Below, piece after piece: positions 14,341-25,477 of a DNA stretch of 64,000 nt. How positions within the stretch are numbered: the stretch's first letter is position 1; each line of letters starts with the position of its first letter. Both the position numbers and the translations under genes were made by a program. The notes under the pieces were generated by a model. It was given only the letters and a program-made list of their open reading frames with translations, was not told the origin of the DNA and searched no databases. Source of the stretch: a bacterium (lineage in GTDB: Bacteria; Orphanbacterota; Orphanbacteria; Orphanbacterales; Orphanbacteraceae); assembly GCA_025782575.1 (NCBI GenBank), contig JALGYY010000035.1, forward strand, positions 20,670 through 84,669, given 5' to 3'.

Positions 14341-14811
14341 GTGAATGACAATCACCAGATGATCTCCACATCCCGCTTCGGAACGATTCAGGTATCCCCG
14401 GACAATCTCTACGAATTCCCCGGCGGTCTTTTTGGCTTTCCTGATTGCCGGCGGGTCGTGCTGATCGACCGGGATTCGGATGCACCGTTCCTTTGGCTCC
14501 AGTCGGTCGATGACGGGAATCTGGCCTTCGTCCTCATCGACCCGACCCTCTTTGATTCAAGCTACGCCCCGCCCGAGTCGCCGGAGGTTCTTACTTCGCT
14601 CGAGTGTCCTGATATCACCGAACTCGTAACTCTCGCGATCGTGGGAATCCCTGATGACGTAAGCGGTATGACCGCCAATCTCAAAGGCCCGATTCTGCTG
14701 AATCCGACGTCCCATCTGGGTAGGCAGATCATTCACAGCGGCGACTATTCTTCGCGGGTCCACATTCTTGACGCCATTCAATCCGGGTGCCGGGCATCCG
14801 GAAGCACCTAG
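14341..14811 (+). CDS. fliW: Flagellar assembly factor FliW
   Basis: 'FGTIQVSPDNLYEFPGGLFGFPDCRRVVLI...PFLWLQSVDDGNLAFVLIDP' matches the FliW family. Followed by csrA. Confidence 0.85.
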   Translation: MNDNHQMISTSRFGTIQVSPDNLYEFPGGLFGFPDCRRVVLIDRDSDAPFLWLQSVDDGNLAFVLIDPTLFDSSYAPPESPEVLTSLECPDITELVTLAIVGIPDDVSGMTANLKGPILLNPTSHLGRQIIHSGDYSSRVHILDAIQSGCRASGST

Positions 14812-14822
14812 CGAGAAGACCC

Positions 14823-15014
14823 ATGTTGCTCATCACAAGAAGATCAGGCCAGTCGATCCGAATCGGCGAAGACATCGTCATCACGATCCGGACCGTCCGA
14901 GGCAAGCAGGTTCAGGTTGCGATAGAAGCGCCACTCGACATCATCGTCGTTCGCACCGAGCTCCCCCCGAAGGAAATCGCCGGCGGGGCGGAGGAACCGG
15001 CCCATGATCGTTGA
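14823..15014 (+). CDS. csrA: Carbon storage regulator CsrA
   Basis: 'MLLITRRSGQSIRIGEDIVITIRTVRGKQVQVAIEAPLDIIVVRTEL' is a near-canonical CsrA. The ORF-track start at 14787 is an N-terminal over-extension. Confidence 0.88.
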   Translation: MLLITRRSGQSIRIGEDIVITIRTVRGKQVQVAIEAPLDIIVVRTELPPKEIAGGAEEPAHDR

Positions 15015-16143
15015 TCTCGATTGCCGCCATTTCCCCGGCGACAGGCCGTGCGTCCATCACAAGACTTCCGGGGCTATCTGTGAAACCTGTAAACATGGCG
15101 AGAAGGTCGGATTCCGAGTCCTGATTATTAAGCTCGATGCCCTGGGCGATGTCCTTCGGACCACGTGCATCCTTCCGGCAATCAGGAGCGAGTGGCCCAG
15201 GTGTCAGATCACATGGATTACCTCGCCTGAGGCGATCCCCCTGCTCTCCGGCAATCCACTGATCGATGAGCGCTGCTCACTGCATGATGCGCCTGCCCGC
15301 CTGGCCGCAGAGCATTTTGACCTTGTCCTCAATCCCGATGCCTCCAAACGAAGCGCCGCCCTGGCGTCGATGGCGAGTGCGAATGAGAAGCGAGGTTATC
15401 TGCTTCGCCCAGACGGCCAGGTCGTCCCCGCGAACGACGAAGCGGCTGACTGGCTCGTGCTGGGGGCGAGGGATGACATGAAGAAGGCCAACCGTGAAAC
15501 TTATCAGTCCCACATTCATCGGCAGCTATGCCTTGATCCGTCCGAGCAGCAAATCTCACTGATTTTGACAGCCTCCGAACGTGAAGACGCGCGCCGGCTT
15601 CTCGCTAAGTCAGGTGTATCGGAGCGACCGATGGTCGGATTGAACACCGGATCCAGCAAGAGATGGAAACACAAGAGCTGGATACCGGAGAGATTCGCGG
15701 AACTGGCTAGACTTCTTGCAGGAGAAAAGTGCGGACCGGTTGTTCTTATCGGCGGACCTGCGGAGCAGGATCAGAACCGCTGGATTGAAAAAGCGAGCGG
15801 TGGGTCGGCAGTGGCGATCGACACGGGGTCCGGCCTCAGAGCGTATGCGGCTCTCGTAGGATCGTGCGGCGTGCTCGTTACCGGCGACACCCTGGGACTC
15901 CACGTTGCGATCGCTCTTGAGCGGCGGGTGGTGGCGCTTTTCGGACCGACATCATCGTCGGAGATCGATCTATACGGCTGCGGAATCCGCGTGGTTCCCG
16001 ACCTGGATTGTATTTGCTGTTATCAAGGAGACTGCGATGTCTCTCCCCATTGCATGGAATCCATTTCTGTTGAATCGGTCCTTTCAAAAATTCTCGATCA
16101 GGCCGGCCTCGTCCCTGAGGGGATGCTCGCCCAAACCATCTGA
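15004..16143 (+). CDS. GT9-family glycosyltransferase (heptosyltransferase-like) with N- and C-terminal Cys clusters
   Basis: 'RVLIIKLDALGDVLRTTCILPAIRSEWP' is a GT9 N-domain signature. 'GPVVLIGGPAEQD' and 'GVLVTGDTLGLHVAIAL' are C-domain signatures. Cys motifs are C-x9-C-x9-C-x2-C (N-terminal) and C-x-CC-x4-C-x5-C (C-terminal). It overlaps the csrA stop by 11 nt. Confidence 0.75.
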   Translation: MIVDLDCRHFPGDRPCVHHKTSGAICETCKHGEKVGFRVLIIKLDALGDVLRTTCILPAIRSEWPRCQITWITSPEAIPLLSGNPLIDERCSLHDAPARLAAEHFDLVLNPDASKRSAALASMASANEKRGYLLRPDGQVVPANDEAADWLVLGARDDMKKANRETYQSHIHRQLCLDPSEQQISLILTASEREDARRLLAKSGVSERPMVGLNTGSSKRWKHKSWIPERFAELARLLAGEKCGPVVLIGGPAEQDQNRWIEKASGGSAVAIDTGSGLRAYAALVGSCGVLVTGDTLGLHVAIALERRVVALFGPTSSSEIDLYGCGIRVVPDLDCICCYQGDCDVSPHCMESISVESVLSKILDQAGLVPEGMLAQTI

Positions 16144-16151
16144 AGGAGGAA

Positions 16152-17162
16152 GTGAAGAAAATGGAGTTTACCGGCGAGCGACTCGTTCCCACGGCGGATG
16201 GCTGGGACGACCTCTTCTTCGAGCACATCACTCGCTATCGGTTCGCGGCGTCATTGGTGAAAGGCAAGCACGTTCTCGACGCGGGATCAGGGTGCGGTTA
16301 CGGCGCCTGTCACATGGCACGTCGCGGCGCTCAATCTGTTTCCGGGATCGATATCGCGTCGGAAGCGGTGAATTACGCACGTGAGCACTTCAAAGAGGAT
16401 GGTCTCCGGTTCGATACCGCCGACGTGCTCGACACCGGCCTCGAGACGGGGAGCTTTGATCGCATCGTCTCTTTCGAGGTTTTTGAGCATGTGGAGCGGC
16501 CCGATCGATTTCTGAACGAGATGAAACGTCTGCTCGCTCCAGGCGGCCTCTTTCTGGTTTCCACTCCCAACGTGCATACATATGTGGCCGGGGGCAAGGA
16601 CGGTGAGAATCCATTTCATGTAAAGGAATATTCCCCGGATGAATTCCAGGAGCTGCTGGAAGCGAGCTTCTCTGTTATTGAACTCTACGCTCAGACAGGG
16701 ACTGCCGGTATCGGAATCATTCCCTGTCACACAGGCGAAGACCGAAGCCCGGAATGCCACGCCCGTCTCGGGCTCGTTTTCCCACCCTCCGAATCTCCGT
16801 GGGGCGAACCGGCTCCCCCACGTGTCGACATCGACACATGCTCCTACATGATTGCGATCTGCGCCATGGAGCCGATCCCCGCCGACCTTCTTCCCTCGCC
16901 GGAATGGTACGTGCTCGGGGAGTCACTTTCCGGCAGGGATGCCGATTATCAGTCCGTTCAAGAGCTTCAGGAAAACCTGATCTCTCGCACGCGGTGGGTA
17001 GAAGAGTTGCAGCGAGAAATCGATCACCGTGATCAGACGATTCGCACACTCCAGGCAGAATTTGATGACCGATCCAGATGGGCGCTCGAACTCGATGCGA
17101 AAGTCAGGGAGCTGACCAGCCAGATCGGCAAGCTTAAGAACCGGGCGGGAATCAGCCCGTGA
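16152..17162 (+). CDS. Class I SAM-dependent methyltransferase with C-terminal coiled coil
   Basis: Motif I 'VLDAGSGCGYGA'. Post-I acidic 'GIDIA'. Motif II/III 'IVSFEVFEHV...LAPGGLFLVSTPN'. C-terminal heptad region 'WVEELQREIDHRDQTIRTLQAEFDDRSRWALELDAKVRELTSQIGKLKN'. Confidence 0.8.
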   Translation: MKKMEFTGERLVPTADGWDDLFFEHITRYRFAASLVKGKHVLDAGSGCGYGACHMARRGAQSVSGIDIASEAVNYAREHFKEDGLRFDTADVLDTGLETGSFDRIVSFEVFEHVERPDRFLNEMKRLLAPGGLFLVSTPNVHTYVAGGKDGENPFHVKEYSPDEFQELLEASFSVIELYAQTGTAGIGIIPCHTGEDRSPECHARLGLVFPPSESPWGEPAPPRVDIDTCSYMIAICAMEPIPADLLPSPEWYVLGESLSGRDADYQSVQELQENLISRTRWVEELQREIDHRDQTIRTLQAEFDDRSRWALELDAKVRELTSQIGKLKNRAGISP

Positions 17163-20100: not shown

Positions 20101-21090
20101 AGCAAGATCCCGATCGACAACGTCCCCGCGGGAGATTTCTATGGCCGCCTCGACGAGATCATCCGATCGTGCCGGTCCCCGTTTATTATGCTGCTTTCTA
20201 CTTCAATCAAAGGTGAGAAGGGATGGTTCGACCAGATGCTCGAACTGGCCGAGGCACGGCAATCCTTCGGTATGATCCTCCCGAAGACGGATGACTTCGA
20301 AGGACACTGTCTCCTGATCAAGAGAAGCGATTATCTCACGGCAGGCGGATTCTCAACTCTCTTCCATTCTGCGGCCGGGTGGGCCGATCTCGCGGGTCGC
20401 ATGGAAGCCGGGGGATCACCCACGAGCATCGCTCGCGGAGCGAAGGTTGCGTATACCGGCGGTCCCGACGGGTTCTCACGGATCGATGGCCGGGAGCGCA
20501 AGGCGGTAACCCGTCTGCATGAGGCTGCGGGCCATTTCGCATCGGGAGACAACGCGAGCGCGGAAAGCTGCATACGTGAATCGCTCGCCTTCAAGCCGGA
20601 CTACACGTCCGCTCTCCATCTTCGGGCCGCTCTTCATATAGCGGCATCCGAACCGGGCCTCGCCGAGTCCGATCTCGCCGAGATACTCAGGATCGAGCCG
20701 AATGACTGCCGTGCCCTTAACGCCCTCGGTTGTCTCGCCTTCAATCAGGGGAGTACAGGTGAAGCCGAGAAGCGCTTCCTGGAAGCCTTGGTGCATGAAC
20801 CGAAGAACAGCGACGTTCTGCGGAACCTGGCCGATATTTACTTCGGACGTGGAGCGATCGTCCAGGCGATGACGCTATACGGCCGTCTGGTCGAACAGGA
20901 TCCCGACAATACGGAAACGTATCTGGCCCTCGGCGCCTGGTTCGAGGAGTTGGGGGAGTGGGAGGGAGCGGCAGACTGGTACAGGCAGGCTCTTCGCGTA
21001 GATGAGACGTGCGACGGGGCGAGCGAGCGACTCGCGGCGATCACCGCCGCGGGTGCAGGCAGCAACACCGGCTCGAGCCATGTCCACTAG
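17185..21090 (+). CDS. 1301-aa multidomain glycosyltransferase: GT2 - GT4 (GT-B) - GT2 - unknown domain - TPR repeats
   Basis: GT2 domain 1: 'AILSYNRVKLL...VVDQASTDGT...VLLNNDTEV'. GT4: 'VYIGNFKHQPNEDAV...FLIVGN...VCVVPLRYGAGLKGKVGQAMAAGCPQVMTSIGAEG'. GT2 domain 2: 'VSIIIPVLDN...LLIIDNGSTEP...VVLLNNDTVV'. C-terminal TPR-like repeats (aa ~1110-1270). Confidence 0.8.
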   Translation: MKTVSKGPKRAPVIAILSYNRVKLLRKCIESIFANTSADYRICVVDQASTDGTRNYLKKLGDRIDHMATDENHGFVDGNNLVMEEYAESDVVLLNNDTEVQPGWLTALVDRAYSDPTIGVVGAKLIYPDGLLQAAGCEIFSDASGREIGKYDDPSRFIYNQTADVDYCSGACLYVKRETLNQTGFFDTQYAPAYWEDTDLCFAARDAGYRVVYEPQSVVVHHEGGSFGSAHAQSRSSELQDRNRPKFIKKWSSALAAQRDSIYRIPGQEGKEKILVILPFLPLYDRAAGEMRWFHTLKLLTKRYQVVFLARNGQDGIKYINPLEKMGITVFHTDQERLRQLGTEMTGPVWIDFPALLQANDFKAVIVGFYHVAAQYYKDIRQFSPEAKLIVDSFDVAFLRERRRAEITGKDEDLWHAEEVRRIELGWYEKFDMVLTVTEEDRDILLKENRSLAIGISTDIHPVPEGEWTPGRHDLVYIGNFKHQPNEDAVLYFAEEVLPKIHEEIPDARFLIVGNAPTKKIKALAGDRVVVTGFVPDIVPYLRRAAVCVVPLRYGAGLKGKVGQAMAAGCPQVMTSIGAEGMGIVHERDALIANGANEFARETIRLYQDPAMQEKIARNARQLVADRYSYEKAAEYWEEVFEFIENKTPPEISRLEEKKISGTGYLRLAESRSIVPRVSIIIPVLDNLSLTTSCWTSIRKNTRIPYELLIIDNGSTEPIALDATLNNYRCIRNDTNLGFAAAINQGIRNSQGEYVVLLNNDTVVTPGWLESMIKHIDRDSTIGIVAPLTNYANTEQRIPVDYHDEKELYRFSSKLAKRNRGQSRQLRKVIGMCMVIPRRVIEEIGLFDERFGIGNFEDDDFCLRARLAGYKVVCAQDSYIHHEGGKTFERIDLDYAALLKTNSEIYMKKWAPVLSRSSNQEEPEVAPLTTILYQDNGSLVPEEIQSTLEDLPAGTDLRILCTDESKFSVFQDSKIPIDNVPAGDFYGRLDEIIRSCRSPFIMLLSTSIKGEKGWFDQMLELAEARQSFGMILPKTDDFEGHCLLIKRSDYLTAGGFSTLFHSAAGWADLAGRMEAGGSPTSIARGAKVAYTGGPDGFSRIDGRERKAVTRLHEAAGHFASGDNASAESCIRESLAFKPDYTSALHLRAALHIAASEPGLAESDLAEILRIEPNDCRALNALGCLAFNQGSTGEAEKRFLEALVHEPKNSDVLRNLADIYFGRGAIVQAMTLYGRLVEQDPDNTETYLALGAWFEELGEWEGAADWYRQALRVDETCDGASERLAAITAAGAGSNTGSSHVH

Positions 21091-22585
21091 GCACTCGCTC
21101 TCTGTCTGCTATATCGCGAAGAATGAATCGGACAACCTCGCTCGATCGATCGCCTCGATTGCCTCGGTCGCCGATGAGATTATCGTCGCCGACACAGGAT
21201 CGTGCGACGGAACACAGGATCTTGCCCGCAGTCTTGGAGCGAGGTTGATCGATATTCAGTGGACGGATGACTTTTCCCAGGCGAGAAACGCGTCACTCGA
21301 AGCGGCGAGCGGCGACTGGGTACTTTGCCTGGACGGAGACGAACGATTTGAAACAGGGCAGAACAAAACTCTCCGACGTCTGATCCGTCCGGGGGGGGGA
21401 GGGGGAGGAGACGCCTACACCGTCTGTCTCGTGAGCCGACTGGCAGGTGATCAGACCGGACAGGTCTACGAACATCTTTATCCCCGCCTGTTTCGAAACC
21501 GTCCTTCTTATCGATTCCGGGGCCGGGTTCATGAGCAGATCGGTCCTTCCATCATGCAGGCGGGAGGCAAAATCAAGCCGTCCGGACTTCGCATCGATCA
21601 TACAGGCTACACTCTTCAAGGTGACGCCCGTCTTGCGAAATCAAGAAGAAACCTAACTCTTCTTCTTCTCGATGAGAATGACAATCCCCATGACGGCCTC
21701 ATTCAATATCATTTAGGGGAGACCTATTCCGTTCTCTCCGACAACGTCCGCGCGGTCCTTGCCTATGAAAATGCGATACGGTCCGGCGAACTGAGTATGA
21801 ATCACATGTCGTTCGCCCATCAGAATCTGGCAGCAGCCGAGAACAAGTTGGGAAACCATCGGGAAGCGGAGGAACACGCTCGCCAGGCGATTCGCATCGA
21901 CCGGACAGCCGGCCCCGCCTACCTGATCCTTGCTTCCGCCCTCATTCGCCTCGGAAGCTATGATGAAGCGGTCCGCGCCGCCGATCGCCACCTGAAAGTG
22001 AAGCCCGGCGCGCATGCAGCCGTTCGCTTCCGTCCGGATCCTGCCAAGGCCTGGTTTCTTAAAGGGGAGGCTCTTCTCCGCGGAAAGCGGGTCGACGAGG
22101 CACTCGAATCGGCCGAAAAATCGGTTCACGCCGCTCCCGGGCTTGCGGCGGGGTACCGGCTTCGAGCAAGGGTCCATATTGCAACTGGAGAGGCTCTGAG
22201 GGCAGAGGCCGACTGGAAGAAGGCCCTCTCTATCGATCCGCGTGATCCGACCACGTGGCAGGCGCTCCTGACCCTCCAGACAAGAAGCGGCACACCGGCC
22301 GCCCTTCTTTCAACAGCCGATCGAGCGGTCGCGGCCACCGGCCATCCGTCGCTTTTCGAGATTCAGGCCTCGCTCCGGCTTCAATCGGGCGATCAGACAG
22401 GTGCGATTCAGAGTTTCGAGTCCGCGCTCCGCGGATCGTCCGACCCGGCCCGGATCCACAGGCTTCTTGCCGGGCTTCACCACCGGAACGGCCACGCGGA
22501 ACGCGCCCGCTATCATTTCGATCAGATCAACCAGATTGTCTCCTCTACGGTCATCCCTTCCCACGAGCATCAAAAAACTCCGTAA
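21080..22585 (+). CDS. GT2-family glycosyltransferase with C-terminal TPR repeats
   Basis: 'LSVCYIAKNESDNLARSIASIASVADEIIVADTGSCDGT' is a WaaE/KdtX-like GT2 N-terminus with a 'DGDE' motif. A TPR region follows (aa ~230-500). The internal ATG at 21080 is used; the 21002 start overlaps the preceding gene. Confidence 0.75.
   Translation: MSTRHSLSVCYIAKNESDNLARSIASIASVADEIIVADTGSCDGTQDLARSLGARLIDIQWTDDFSQARNASLEAASGDWVLCLDGDERFETGQNKTLRRLIRPGGGGGGDAYTVCLVSRLAGDQTGQVYEHLYPRLFRNRPSYRFRGRVHEQIGPSIMQAGGKIKPSGLRIDHTGYTLQGDARLAKSRRNLTLLLLDENDNPHDGLIQYHLGETYSVLSDNVRAVLAYENAIRSGELSMNHMSFAHQNLAAAENKLGNHREAEEHARQAIRIDRTAGPAYLILASALIRLGSYDEAVRAADRHLKVKPGAHAAVRFRPDPAKAWFLKGEALLRGKRVDEALESAEKSVHAAPGLAAGYRLRARVHIATGEALRAEADWKKALSIDPRDPTTWQALLTLQTRSGTPAALLSTADRAVAATGHPSLFEIQASLRLQSGDQTGAIQSFESALRGSSDPARIHRLLAGLHHRNGHAERARYHFDQINQIVSSTVIPSHEHQKTP
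21391..21405 (+). repeat. Homopolymeric tract G9-A-G5 inside GT2-TPR coding sequence (encodes Gly6)
   Basis: Direct reading: ccg ggg ggg gga ggg gga gga gives 'PGGGGGG'. Confidence 0.8.
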
Positions 22586-22743: not shown

Positions 22744-23586
22744 ATGGCCGGTGCCGATCTTTCTAGGATTAACACAAACGTAGCCGCCCTGAATGCGCTG
22801 AAAGCCCTCCGGGACACTAACCAGAAACTTGCTATCCACCAGCTGCGCCTCGCGACCGGTAAGCGTATCAACAGCGCCGGCGAGGATCCGGCGGGTCTCG
22901 TCTTCGCCAAGCGTCTCGAGTCACGTGCCCGCGGCCTTGCCGTTGCACGGGACAACGTAGGTGATGTTCAGAATCTGCTTTCCACCGCTGAAGGCGGCGC
23001 GCAGAGCATCAGCGAGATTCTTCTCACAATGAAAGAGAAGATCCTGCAGGCAGCGAATGATACGCTGGGAACTGAAGAGCGGGCCGCGGTCGAATCGCAG
23101 CTCGATGACCTCGCCGCGGAAATTGACGATATTGTCGGCGCCACACTCTGGGGGGGCCAGCAGCTCCTGGACGGCTCCTTCACCGGGAAGCAGTTCCAGG
23201 TCGGTGAGCGGGCAGCCGATACGATGAGCTTCGGTGTCACCCAGAACCACGGTGCTGCGACGCTCGCCGTCGCCGACTCTGATCTCGACGTCAGCAGCGC
23301 GGCGACTTCGTCGACCGCTCTCTCCAATGTCAATACCGCAATCAACACGATCAACACGAGCCTCCAGAATCTGGGGTCGACCCAGCTCCGTGTGGGGATC
23401 AAAGAGGCGAACATCTCCGTGTCGATCAACAACCAGCTTGCGGCTCATAACCGGATCTTTAACGCCGATATGGCCGCCGAGCAGATCGAGCTCTTGAAAA
23501 ACTCCCTCCTGCAGCAGTCGGCGACCGCGATGCTCTCCCAGGCAAACCTCGCGCCGCAATCGGTGTTGCAGCTGATTCTGGGATAA
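22744..23586 (+). CDS. fliC: Flagellin
   Basis: N-terminal D0/D1 'INTNVAALNALKAL...LRLATGKRINSAGEDPAG'. C-terminal 'AEQIELLKNSLLQQSATAMLSQANLAPQSVLQLI'. RBS AAAGGAGAA then ATG at 22744. The ORF-track start at 22672 is an over-extension. Confidence 0.9.
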   Translation: MAGADLSRINTNVAALNALKALRDTNQKLAIHQLRLATGKRINSAGEDPAGLVFAKRLESRARGLAVARDNVGDVQNLLSTAEGGAQSISEILLTMKEKILQAANDTLGTEERAAVESQLDDLAAEIDDIVGATLWGGQQLLDGSFTGKQFQVGERAADTMSFGVTQNHGAATLAVADSDLDVSSAATSSTALSNVNTAINTINTSLQNLGSTQLRVGIKEANISVSINNQLAAHNRIFNADMAAEQIELLKNSLLQQSATAMLSQANLAPQSVLQLILG

Positions 23587-24058: not shown

Positions 24059-25477
24059 ATGATTGAATTTCAATCCATACGATCTGCTGAACTGAACCAG
24101 TTCCTGGAAGTCTTTCAGGCACGGTCGACGTTTCAGCTGGATTCGGTCAAGAGCCTTCGAGACGCGCTGGAACTGAAGACCACGATCTATAACGATCTGA
24201 AGACCAAGCTCAAGGCCCTGAAAAAAATGACGGACGACTTCTCCCAGACGGGTAGTCTTTCCGCATTCGGGGCGAAGACCGTATCGGTGAGCGACGAGTC
24301 GATCCTGCGGATCTCCGCGGGCGGCGGTTCCTCGGCATTGTCTCACTCGATTCACGTCGATCAGCTCGCAAGGGCTCACTCCGTACTCTCTGACCGATAC
24401 ACACAGACCGGTACAGAGTTGAGCGCGGCTCATGCCGGCACCAAGAATTTCTCGATCACAGTAGATGGAACACAGTACGACGTCAGCGTGGTCATCAATT
24501 CGGGCGACGACAATCAGACTGTTCTGAAATCCGTCGTCGACGCGATCAATGCCGTGGACGACATCGAAGCGGTCGGATCCAGCATCAACGACACCGATAC
24601 GACGACGAAATTGTCCATCACGAGTGAGGAGACCGGGACGAAGAATAAAATGACGTTCACGGACACCGACGGCCTTCTCGCTTCACTCGGAGTGACCAAT
24701 ACATCGGCCGCGACGGATACGGCCGGTGGGTACATCTACCAGGACTCCGGCGGAAGCGAGTTGGACGCCAAGCTCACCGTGGACGGCATCAATATCGTTC
24801 GCTCGAGCAACACCCTGACCGATGTGGTCGCAGGGGCGACTCTGGAGCTTCTCGGAGCCCAGGAGGCGACAGACCCTGACGTATCGGTAAGTATTGCGGT
24901 CGACACTGAAGCGATTACCGCCAAAGTGCAGGAATTCCTTGATGCATTTAATGATGCCCATGGATATATCACAGCCAAAGTCAACGTCGATCCGACCACT
25001 TATGCACGCGGCGACCTTGCCGGAGACTCTCCTTACGTTAATCTCTGGCAGAATCTCCGCTCATCCATGGCGAATTCAGTCCCGAGCTCCTCGAGCGAGG
25101 TTTTCTCGGCCCTTTCCCAGATCGGGATCACCTCCGGAGCGACCGGGAATTTTTCGATTACCAATACGTCCAATTTCGATGATGCCCTGAACGAGAATCT
25201 GGACGCCGTTGAAGCACTGTTCAACGCATCTGACGGCATCGCTGTCCGACTCGAAGAGCTCCTGGATAACTACACGGATGTCAGCGGGATCATCGACTCG
25301 AGTAAGAATTCCGTAACCGACAGGGTCGATCTTCTGGACAATAAGATCGACCGGCTTGAGCGACTCCAGGCAATGGAGGAGAAGCGCCTGATCGAACAGT
25401 ATGGCGCGATCCAGGAGGCCACGATTTTGAATCAGTCGATTCTCCAGATGGTGAATAGCCTGTATTCAGGATTCTAA
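24059..25477 (+). CDS. fliD: Flagellar filament cap protein FliD
   Basis: 472 aa. N-terminal helical region, central S/T-rich beta region, C-terminal coiled coil 'DRVDLLDNKIDRLERLQAMEEKRLIEQYGAI'. Position after fliS. Confidence 0.7.
   Translation: MIEFQSIRSAELNQFLEVFQARSTFQLDSVKSLRDALELKTTIYNDLKTKLKALKKMTDDFSQTGSLSAFGAKTVSVSDESILRISAGGGSSALSHSIHVDQLARAHSVLSDRYTQTGTELSAAHAGTKNFSITVDGTQYDVSVVINSGDDNQTVLKSVVDAINAVDDIEAVGSSINDTDTTTKLSITSEETGTKNKMTFTDTDGLLASLGVTNTSAATDTAGGYIYQDSGGSELDAKLTVDGINIVRSSNTLTDVVAGATLELLGAQEATDPDVSVSIAVDTEAITAKVQEFLDAFNDAHGYITAKVNVDPTTYARGDLAGDSPYVNLWQNLRSSMANSVPSSSSEVFSALSQIGITSGATGNFSITNTSNFDDALNENLDAVEALFNASDGIAVRLEELLDNYTDVSGIIDSSKNSVTDRVDLLDNKIDRLERLQAMEEKRLIEQYGAIQEATILNQSILQMVNSLYSGF

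Follow-up and report, generated by a model that had tools for sequence, protein, structure and literature searches.

A GT9 glycosyltransferase with two conserved Cys4 knuckles in a late flagellar operon and its possible part in flagellin glycan extension

Known flagellin glycosylation islands modify flagellin with nonulosonic acids, GlcNAc, or rhamnose-based glycans; these modifications are best understood in a few pathogens. TPR-bearing glycosyltransferases occur in several such islands, including those of Listeria (GmaR) and Pseudomonas/Burkholderia (FgtA), and we know of no characterized GT9 step in any of them. In Caulobacter FlmG, the TPR domain is the flagellin-binding module (PMC7591256). 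Variable region 1 of the enterobacterial flag-2 locus also contains GT9 genes, whose products De Maayer et al. (2020) proposed, on genomics alone, to glycosylate flagellin (PMC6993521). As CAZy is quoted in that study, GT9 comprises both heptosyltransferases and GlcNAc transferases, including GlcNAc transferases of LPS. A precedent for a GT9 enzyme acting on protein is TibC, a dodecameric ring whose subunits have a flattened beta-barrel at the N-terminus (residues 1-97), a reduced N-lobe, and a beta-hairpin thumb inserted in the C-lobe (PMC4358343). Its iron finger, two long knuckles holding Fe(III) on four cysteines (339, 342, 358, and 370), contacts the substrate TibA (PMC4358343). The sugar-site residues conserved among bacterial autotransporter heptosyltransferases of the TibC/AAH type (BAHTs) include TibC Arg286 and Trp305, with Pro300 or Ser as stereo-selector. 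In Ignavibacteria and in Kuenenia, mass spectrometry has revealed protein glycans that contain heptose, and no report of heptose on any flagellin was found in the literature searched.

The GT9-family gene studied here lies in a 64-kb stretch of DNA, the whole of which we refer to as the window (Table 1). The first-pass annotation had placed this gene in a flagellar operon and was right to do so, as flagellar genes flank it on both sides, although it overlooked csrA. Upstream are genes for FlhB, FlhA, FlgF/G/A/H/I/J, FlgK, and FlgL, followed by FliW and CsrA; downstream are a methyltransferase, two TPR-bearing glycosyltransferases, flagellin, and FliD. The resulting local order is flgK-flgL-fliW-csrA-GT9-methyltransferase-(GT2-GT4-GT2-TPR)-(GT2-TPR)-fliC-fliD. 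The remaining annotated genes of the window serve motility or housekeeping, and there are no LPS core, Kdo, or lipid A genes near the GT9 gene, whose neighbors in the window are flagellar. The csrA stop codon (15014) lies beyond the GT9 ATG (15004), giving an 11-nt overlap that suggests translational coupling of the two genes. A scan of 11-26 kb for promoters and terminators returned sites no more frequently than in shuffled sequence, and it placed no terminator between csrA and the glycosyltransferase genes.

Table 1. Features of the GT9 gene and its surroundings (positions within the window)
Feature	Position	Strand	Remarks
fliW (flagellin/CsrA partner-switch protein)	14341..14811	+	PF02623 FliW, E 3.8e-31; same place in syntenic loci
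csrA	14823..15014	+	ORF 14787..15014 contains MLLITRRSGQSIRIGEDIVITI; start at 14823 picked by eye
GT9-family glycosyltransferase gene	15004..16143	+	379 aa; the feature under study
N-terminal Cys4 knuckle (C7, C16, C26, C29)	15022..15090	+	precedes beta-strand 1
C-terminal Cys4 knuckle (C336, C339, C344, C350)	16009..16053	+	interval between last C-lobe strand and C-terminal helix
Class I SAM methyltransferase	16152..17162	+	PF08241, PF13847; 8 nt past GT9 stop
GT2-GT4-GT2 + C-terminal TPR fusion, 1301 aa	17185..21090	+	PF00535 x2, PF13692/PF00534, many TPR families
GT2 + TPR protein	21002..22585	+	NCBIfam SunS-family and TPR models
fliC, short flagellin (~280 aa)	22744..23586	+	NCBIfam flagellin models
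fliD, filament cap, downstream edge of island	24059..25477	+	NF005955 FliD, E 3.5e-43

This arrangement is not peculiar to the window. The same gene order is found in another 10 loci, 8 from species-representative genomes and 2 from metagenome contigs (L001, L002, L004, L007, L011, L020, L022, L029, L091/092, and L094), so that the placing of glycosyltransferase genes between late flagellar genes and fliC is kept across relatives. Across the window and these syntenic loci the GT9 proteins share only 45-57% identity, and the 1301-aa fusion protein is 44-58% identical in 8 flagellar loci. The methyltransferase gene, the product of which weakly matches the mycofactocin oligosaccharide methyltransferase MftM, adjoins the GT9 gene in the syntenic loci too. 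At the csrA position of L091/L092 and L094 lies a gene that matches PF02599 CsrA and overlaps the GT9 gene by the same 11 nt, and L091 and L094 carry a GT2 + TPR gene at the same place as in the window. The product of the window's GT2 + TPR gene matches a SunS-family peptide S-glycosyltransferase model over residues 32-229 with an E value of 3.8e-15, below the cut-off of the model; this gene probably begins closer to 21080, where it would overlap the preceding stop. We set the start of fliC at MAGADLSRINTN by alignment with five syntenic flagellins. The central stretch of this flagellin is Ser/Thr-rich and in the window contains VADSDLDVSSAATSSTALSNV; the fliC product is the presumed target of the glycosylation island. 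As in FlmG-type islands, glycosyltransferase genes lie with late flagellar genes on one side and fliC on the other, and TPR repeats are fused to a glycosyltransferase. The window differs from known islands: it encodes a methyltransferase and a GT9 enzyme alongside five GT domains, and it has no genes for nucleotide-sugar synthesis. The flag-2 locus likewise has GT9 genes inside a flagellar locus, with flagellin glycosylation proposed from genomics in both cases, but the lineage and the locus are different.

The 379-aa product is a genuine GT9 glycosyltransferase in which the catalytic and donor-binding residues are present. It matches PF01075 Glyco_transf_9 over residues 99-325 with 73.6 bits (cut-off 22; E 2e-20), and the top structural matches of its AlphaFold2 model (AF2; pLDDT 94), which has a GT-B fold, are all GT9 enzymes, which bears out the family first assigned to it. 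The model has a plain GT9 architecture with both Rossmann lobes full; 36 residues, modeled as coil and one short helix (H17-22), stand ahead of beta-strand 1, and the C-lobe strands (E211-214, 246-249, 269-271, 290-293, 308-312, and 327-330) alternate regularly with helices. The closest solved relatives are LPS-type GT9 enzymes, namely Veillonella parvula GT9 (3TOV), Escherichia coli WaaF (1PSW), and WaaC (2GT1/2H1H/6DFE). An exact-sequence look-up of the protein in public assemblies gave no record. In an alignment of the window protein with 120 homologues (121 sequences, mean column identity 44%), D49, K224, E254, and D295 do not vary, and H300 is at least 90% conserved. K224, D295, T296, and H300 align with WaaC K192, D261, T262, and H266, so the sugar-site pair Asp295 and His300 follows the WaaC pattern, and D49 shares a GD motif with Asp110, the proposed base of TibC, in a by-eye motif comparison. 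Here we take the roles of the GT9 catalytic and donor-site residues to be those given in the WaaC and TibC literature. A pseudo-enzyme comparable to chloroplast PnsB1 is rejected, because the catalytic and donor-site residues are all invariant or nearly so. The protein has no TPR domain, and it falls far under every NCBIfam heptosyltransferase equivalog cut-off (TIGR02193, 75 vs. 185; TIGR02195, 68 vs. 135; TIGR02201, 76 vs. 170), those of WaaC, WaaF, and WaaQ among them.

The most conspicuous features of the protein are its two cysteine clusters. The N-terminal motif recorded in the first-pass annotation is real and conserved, but its first spacing is x8 rather than x9, giving C-x8-C-x9-C-x2-C in the window protein and a consensus of CRHFPGDRPC-x3-K-x5-C-x2-C. 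The C-terminal motif, C-x-CC-x4-C-x5-C (C336, C338, C339, C344, and C350), reads as first written; however, C338 is variable, and the conserved core is C336-x2-C339-x4-C344-x5-C350. Lack of conservation in orthologues had been named as a refuting result, but the cysteines proved conserved in homologues: across the 121 sequences, no variation occurs at C16, C26, C29, C336, C339, C344, or C350, and conservation of C7 exceeds 90%. All 120 homologues have the C-terminal motif and 109 have the exact N-terminal pattern, with the other 11 being spacing variants (C-x1-C) or truncated starts. Both knuckles are also kept by most of another 148 representatives (from 150 listed), each standing for a 50%-identity cluster; approximately 11 of the 148 begin at beta-strand 1 and so are without the N-terminal knuckle, and in a few the C-terminal knuckle is absent or varied. 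Cys4 conservation in these alignments is far above chance. The N-terminal knuckle is modeled at pLDDT 88-95 in the AF2 model, and no Pfam model covers it. The knuckles most likely bind metal, as structural Zn or Fe sites. Neither is confined to the immediate relatives of the window protein: the N-terminal knuckle is present also in Streptomyces and Flammeovirga GT9s, and the C-terminal knuckle in those of Fusobacterium, Paraburkholderia, Ralstonia, Streptomyces, and Flammeovirga, while 3TOV, the closest structure, has no Cys at the C-terminal knuckle position. Because it occurs in such diverse other GT9s, the C-terminal knuckle is not diagnostic of protein substrates.

By these searches, the two knuckles together mark a large, uncharacterized GT9 subfamily, with about 2,300 representatives of 50%-identity clusters at E<=1e-30. 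Its members reside mostly in non-flagellar glycan clusters. A GT4 gene is a neighbor in 45 of 80 subfamily loci, and 15 of the 80 have hldE (TIGR02198/02199 above cut-off) and an ADP-heptose 6-epimerase gene (TIGR02197, 410 bits vs. a cut-off of 275) no more than 10 kb away. A distant Streptomyces member adjoins rfaE2, an epimerase, and a HAD phosphatase, and a homologue with 50% identity (P0038) is found among GT4s, methyltransferases, PMT_2, and Wzz/Poly_export genes. Neither the 64-kb window nor the DNA flanking the flagellar loci contains ADP-heptose genes; a search of the window for the hldE, hldD, and GT4/GT2/methyltransferase partners of other loci returned generic similarity only and no heptose genes. 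The GT4 and methyltransferase partners in non-flagellar loci are not orthologues of the GT4 domain and methyltransferase of the window, with 24-29% identity over partial lengths, and therefore the GT9 gene would have moved alone. In a neighbor-joining tree without support values, the flagellar-context GT9s group together, and L061, a locus without known context, nests inside the flagellar clade. An acceptor-switch signature was sought in this clade and rejected: Q182 is the only residue that sets it apart from the rest of the subfamily, and therefore acceptor chemistry is probably unchanged.

We propose, with moderate confidence, that the protein is a cytoplasmic GT9 enzyme, probably dependent on ADP-heptose, that was recruited to a flagellin O-glycosylation island and likely extends a glycan begun by the TPR transferases. 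A role in flagellar glycosylation is reasonable because the link to the late flagellar genes and flagellin is kept in the 10 further loci. We favor an extender because close homologues sit in polysaccharide and glycan clusters, because Q182 alone marks off the flagellar clade, and because TPR is a flagellin-binding module in FlmG and the GT9 protein has none; by analogy, the two TPR-bearing GT2 enzymes of the operon would be better candidates for flagellin recognition than GT9. From the genomic context, the acceptor is thus likely a sugar rather than protein. ADP-heptose is the probable donor because of the hldE and epimerase genes near other subfamily members. Against the proposal count the absence of ADP-heptose genes noted above, the GlcNAc transferases within GT9, and scores far under the NCBIfam heptosyltransferase cut-offs. 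We infer the donor, acceptor, and order of steps as follows. A single copy of a soluble, inverting GT-B enzyme would have been recruited to the late flagellar operon in one lineage (Eisenbacteria-like and unclassified MAGs), where, coupled to csrA and together with the methyltransferase and the two TPR multi-domain glycosyltransferases upstream of fliC, it would form the O-glycosylation island. The TPR domains may bind cytoplasmic flagellin that is unfolded or held by a chaperone, and a GT2 domain would put the first sugar on Ser/Thr of the central S/T-rich stretch. Lengthening of the glycan would then fall to the remaining GT domains together with the GT9 enzyme, the latter using Asp49 as general base to transfer heptose from ADP-heptose, supplied by the LPS pathway, to a sugar acceptor. 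The methyltransferase would act last, capping a hydroxyl.

An alternative, put forward in the first-pass annotation, is that the enzyme is itself a TibC/AAH-like protein O-heptosyltransferase. It would link heptose, with no intervening sugar, to Ser/Thr residues in flagellin or in some other protein of the flagellum, and the Cys4 finger would aid substrate recognition. TibC offers a precedent, the gene holds a conserved position between csrA and fliC, and the groups in which heptose protein glycans were detected are well represented in the subfamily (Ignavibacteria, and Planctomycetota, the phylum of Kuenenia). The two enzymes also share a GT9-like GT-B core (TibC/AAH, PDB 4RAP/4RB4; the BAHT donor is ADP-heptose) and a Cys4 site between the last C-lobe strand and the C-terminal helix, which is the chain position of the substrate-contacting iron finger. 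In both, the site starts with C-x2-C, and its last Cys is followed by x-x-x-I-[ST]-x-x-x-V. In an hhalign comparison of the GT9 family with TibC, which was weak, not significant (E 0.13), and used only to compare motif positions, C336, C339, and C350 stand opposite TibC C339, C342, and C370. The supposedly unique iron finger of TibC is likely an expanded form of a Cys4 knuckle scattered over GT9. However, the finger spans 32 residues in TibC (C339-C370) vs. 15 in the window protein, whose model also has neither the beta-barrel of ~97 residues nor an extra C-lobe hairpin corresponding to the thumb used in ring assembly. In place of the TibC pair Pro300 and Trp305, the hhalign comparison puts the WaaC-type Asp295 and His300. 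In the structure comparison with the AF2 model that had been suggested as a check, TibC ranked last among GT9 structures. A profile search of the PDB with the 121 sequences found 3TOV, WaaF, and WaaC and did not find TibC at E<=10, and a phmmer search of the PDB gave no match to it. No autotransporter was seen among the annotated genes of the window, which come from its first 37 kb and from 40-55.7 kb. With no barrel, no thumb, a WaaC-type sugar site, and no significant sequence relation, we reject a TibC-like protein heptosyltransferase; and given that BAHT hallmarks are missing and the knuckles belong to a mostly non-flagellar subfamily and to other GT9s, the step first made from the cysteine motifs to such an enzyme finds no support. 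The clade also lacks residues signaling a change of acceptor, and the TPR-bearing GT2s already supply a protein-recognition module. Direct heptosylation of flagellin is possible but less likely than glycan extension, and we consider this reading as a whole unlikely.

It is also conceivable that the enzyme belongs to the flagellin island but moves some non-heptose sugar, for instance GlcNAc or a hexose. The donor is uncertain because GT9 includes GlcNAc transferases, those of LPS among them (CAZy, quoted in PMC6993521), and heptose-pathway genes are near no flagellar-type locus. Still, the residues by which WaaC binds ADP-heptose are conserved here and heptose-pathway genes adjoin other members of the same subfamily, making a non-heptose donor rather improbable. 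About as improbable is that the enzyme modifies the LPS core, or some other glycolipid or polysaccharide of the envelope (e.g., for surface adjustment during flagellation), and is merely co-transcribed with late flagellar genes, flagellin not carrying its product: the closest solved relatives are LPS heptosyltransferases and most subfamily members lie in envelope-glycan clusters, some with hldE/hldD, but the fliW-csrA...fliC synteny is kept across the observed protein divergence along with the csrA overlap, the neighboring TPR-glycosyltransferases are typical of flagellin glycosylation and not LPS core genes, and the scores are far under the WaaC, WaaF, and WaaQ equivalog cut-offs.

Returning to glycan extension by a recruited GT9 enzyme, a broader and more tentative proposal is that the dual-Cys4 subfamily supplies the cytoplasmic heptosyltransferase so far missing for the protein-linked glycans of FCB and PVC bacteria, with the flagellar clade putting (methyl-)heptose on flagellin. 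If so, the subfamily would explain the heptose protein glycans of Ignavibacteria and anammox Planctomycetes, and (methyl-)heptose on flagellin would be a modification not found for any flagellum in the literature searched. For annotation, a Cys4 finger motif should not be read as a marker of protein substrates. A GT9 step in this island, if true, would bring heptose chemistry to the flagella of little-studied environmental phyla and would give a first functional handle on the large, uncharacterized two-knuckle GT9 subfamily.

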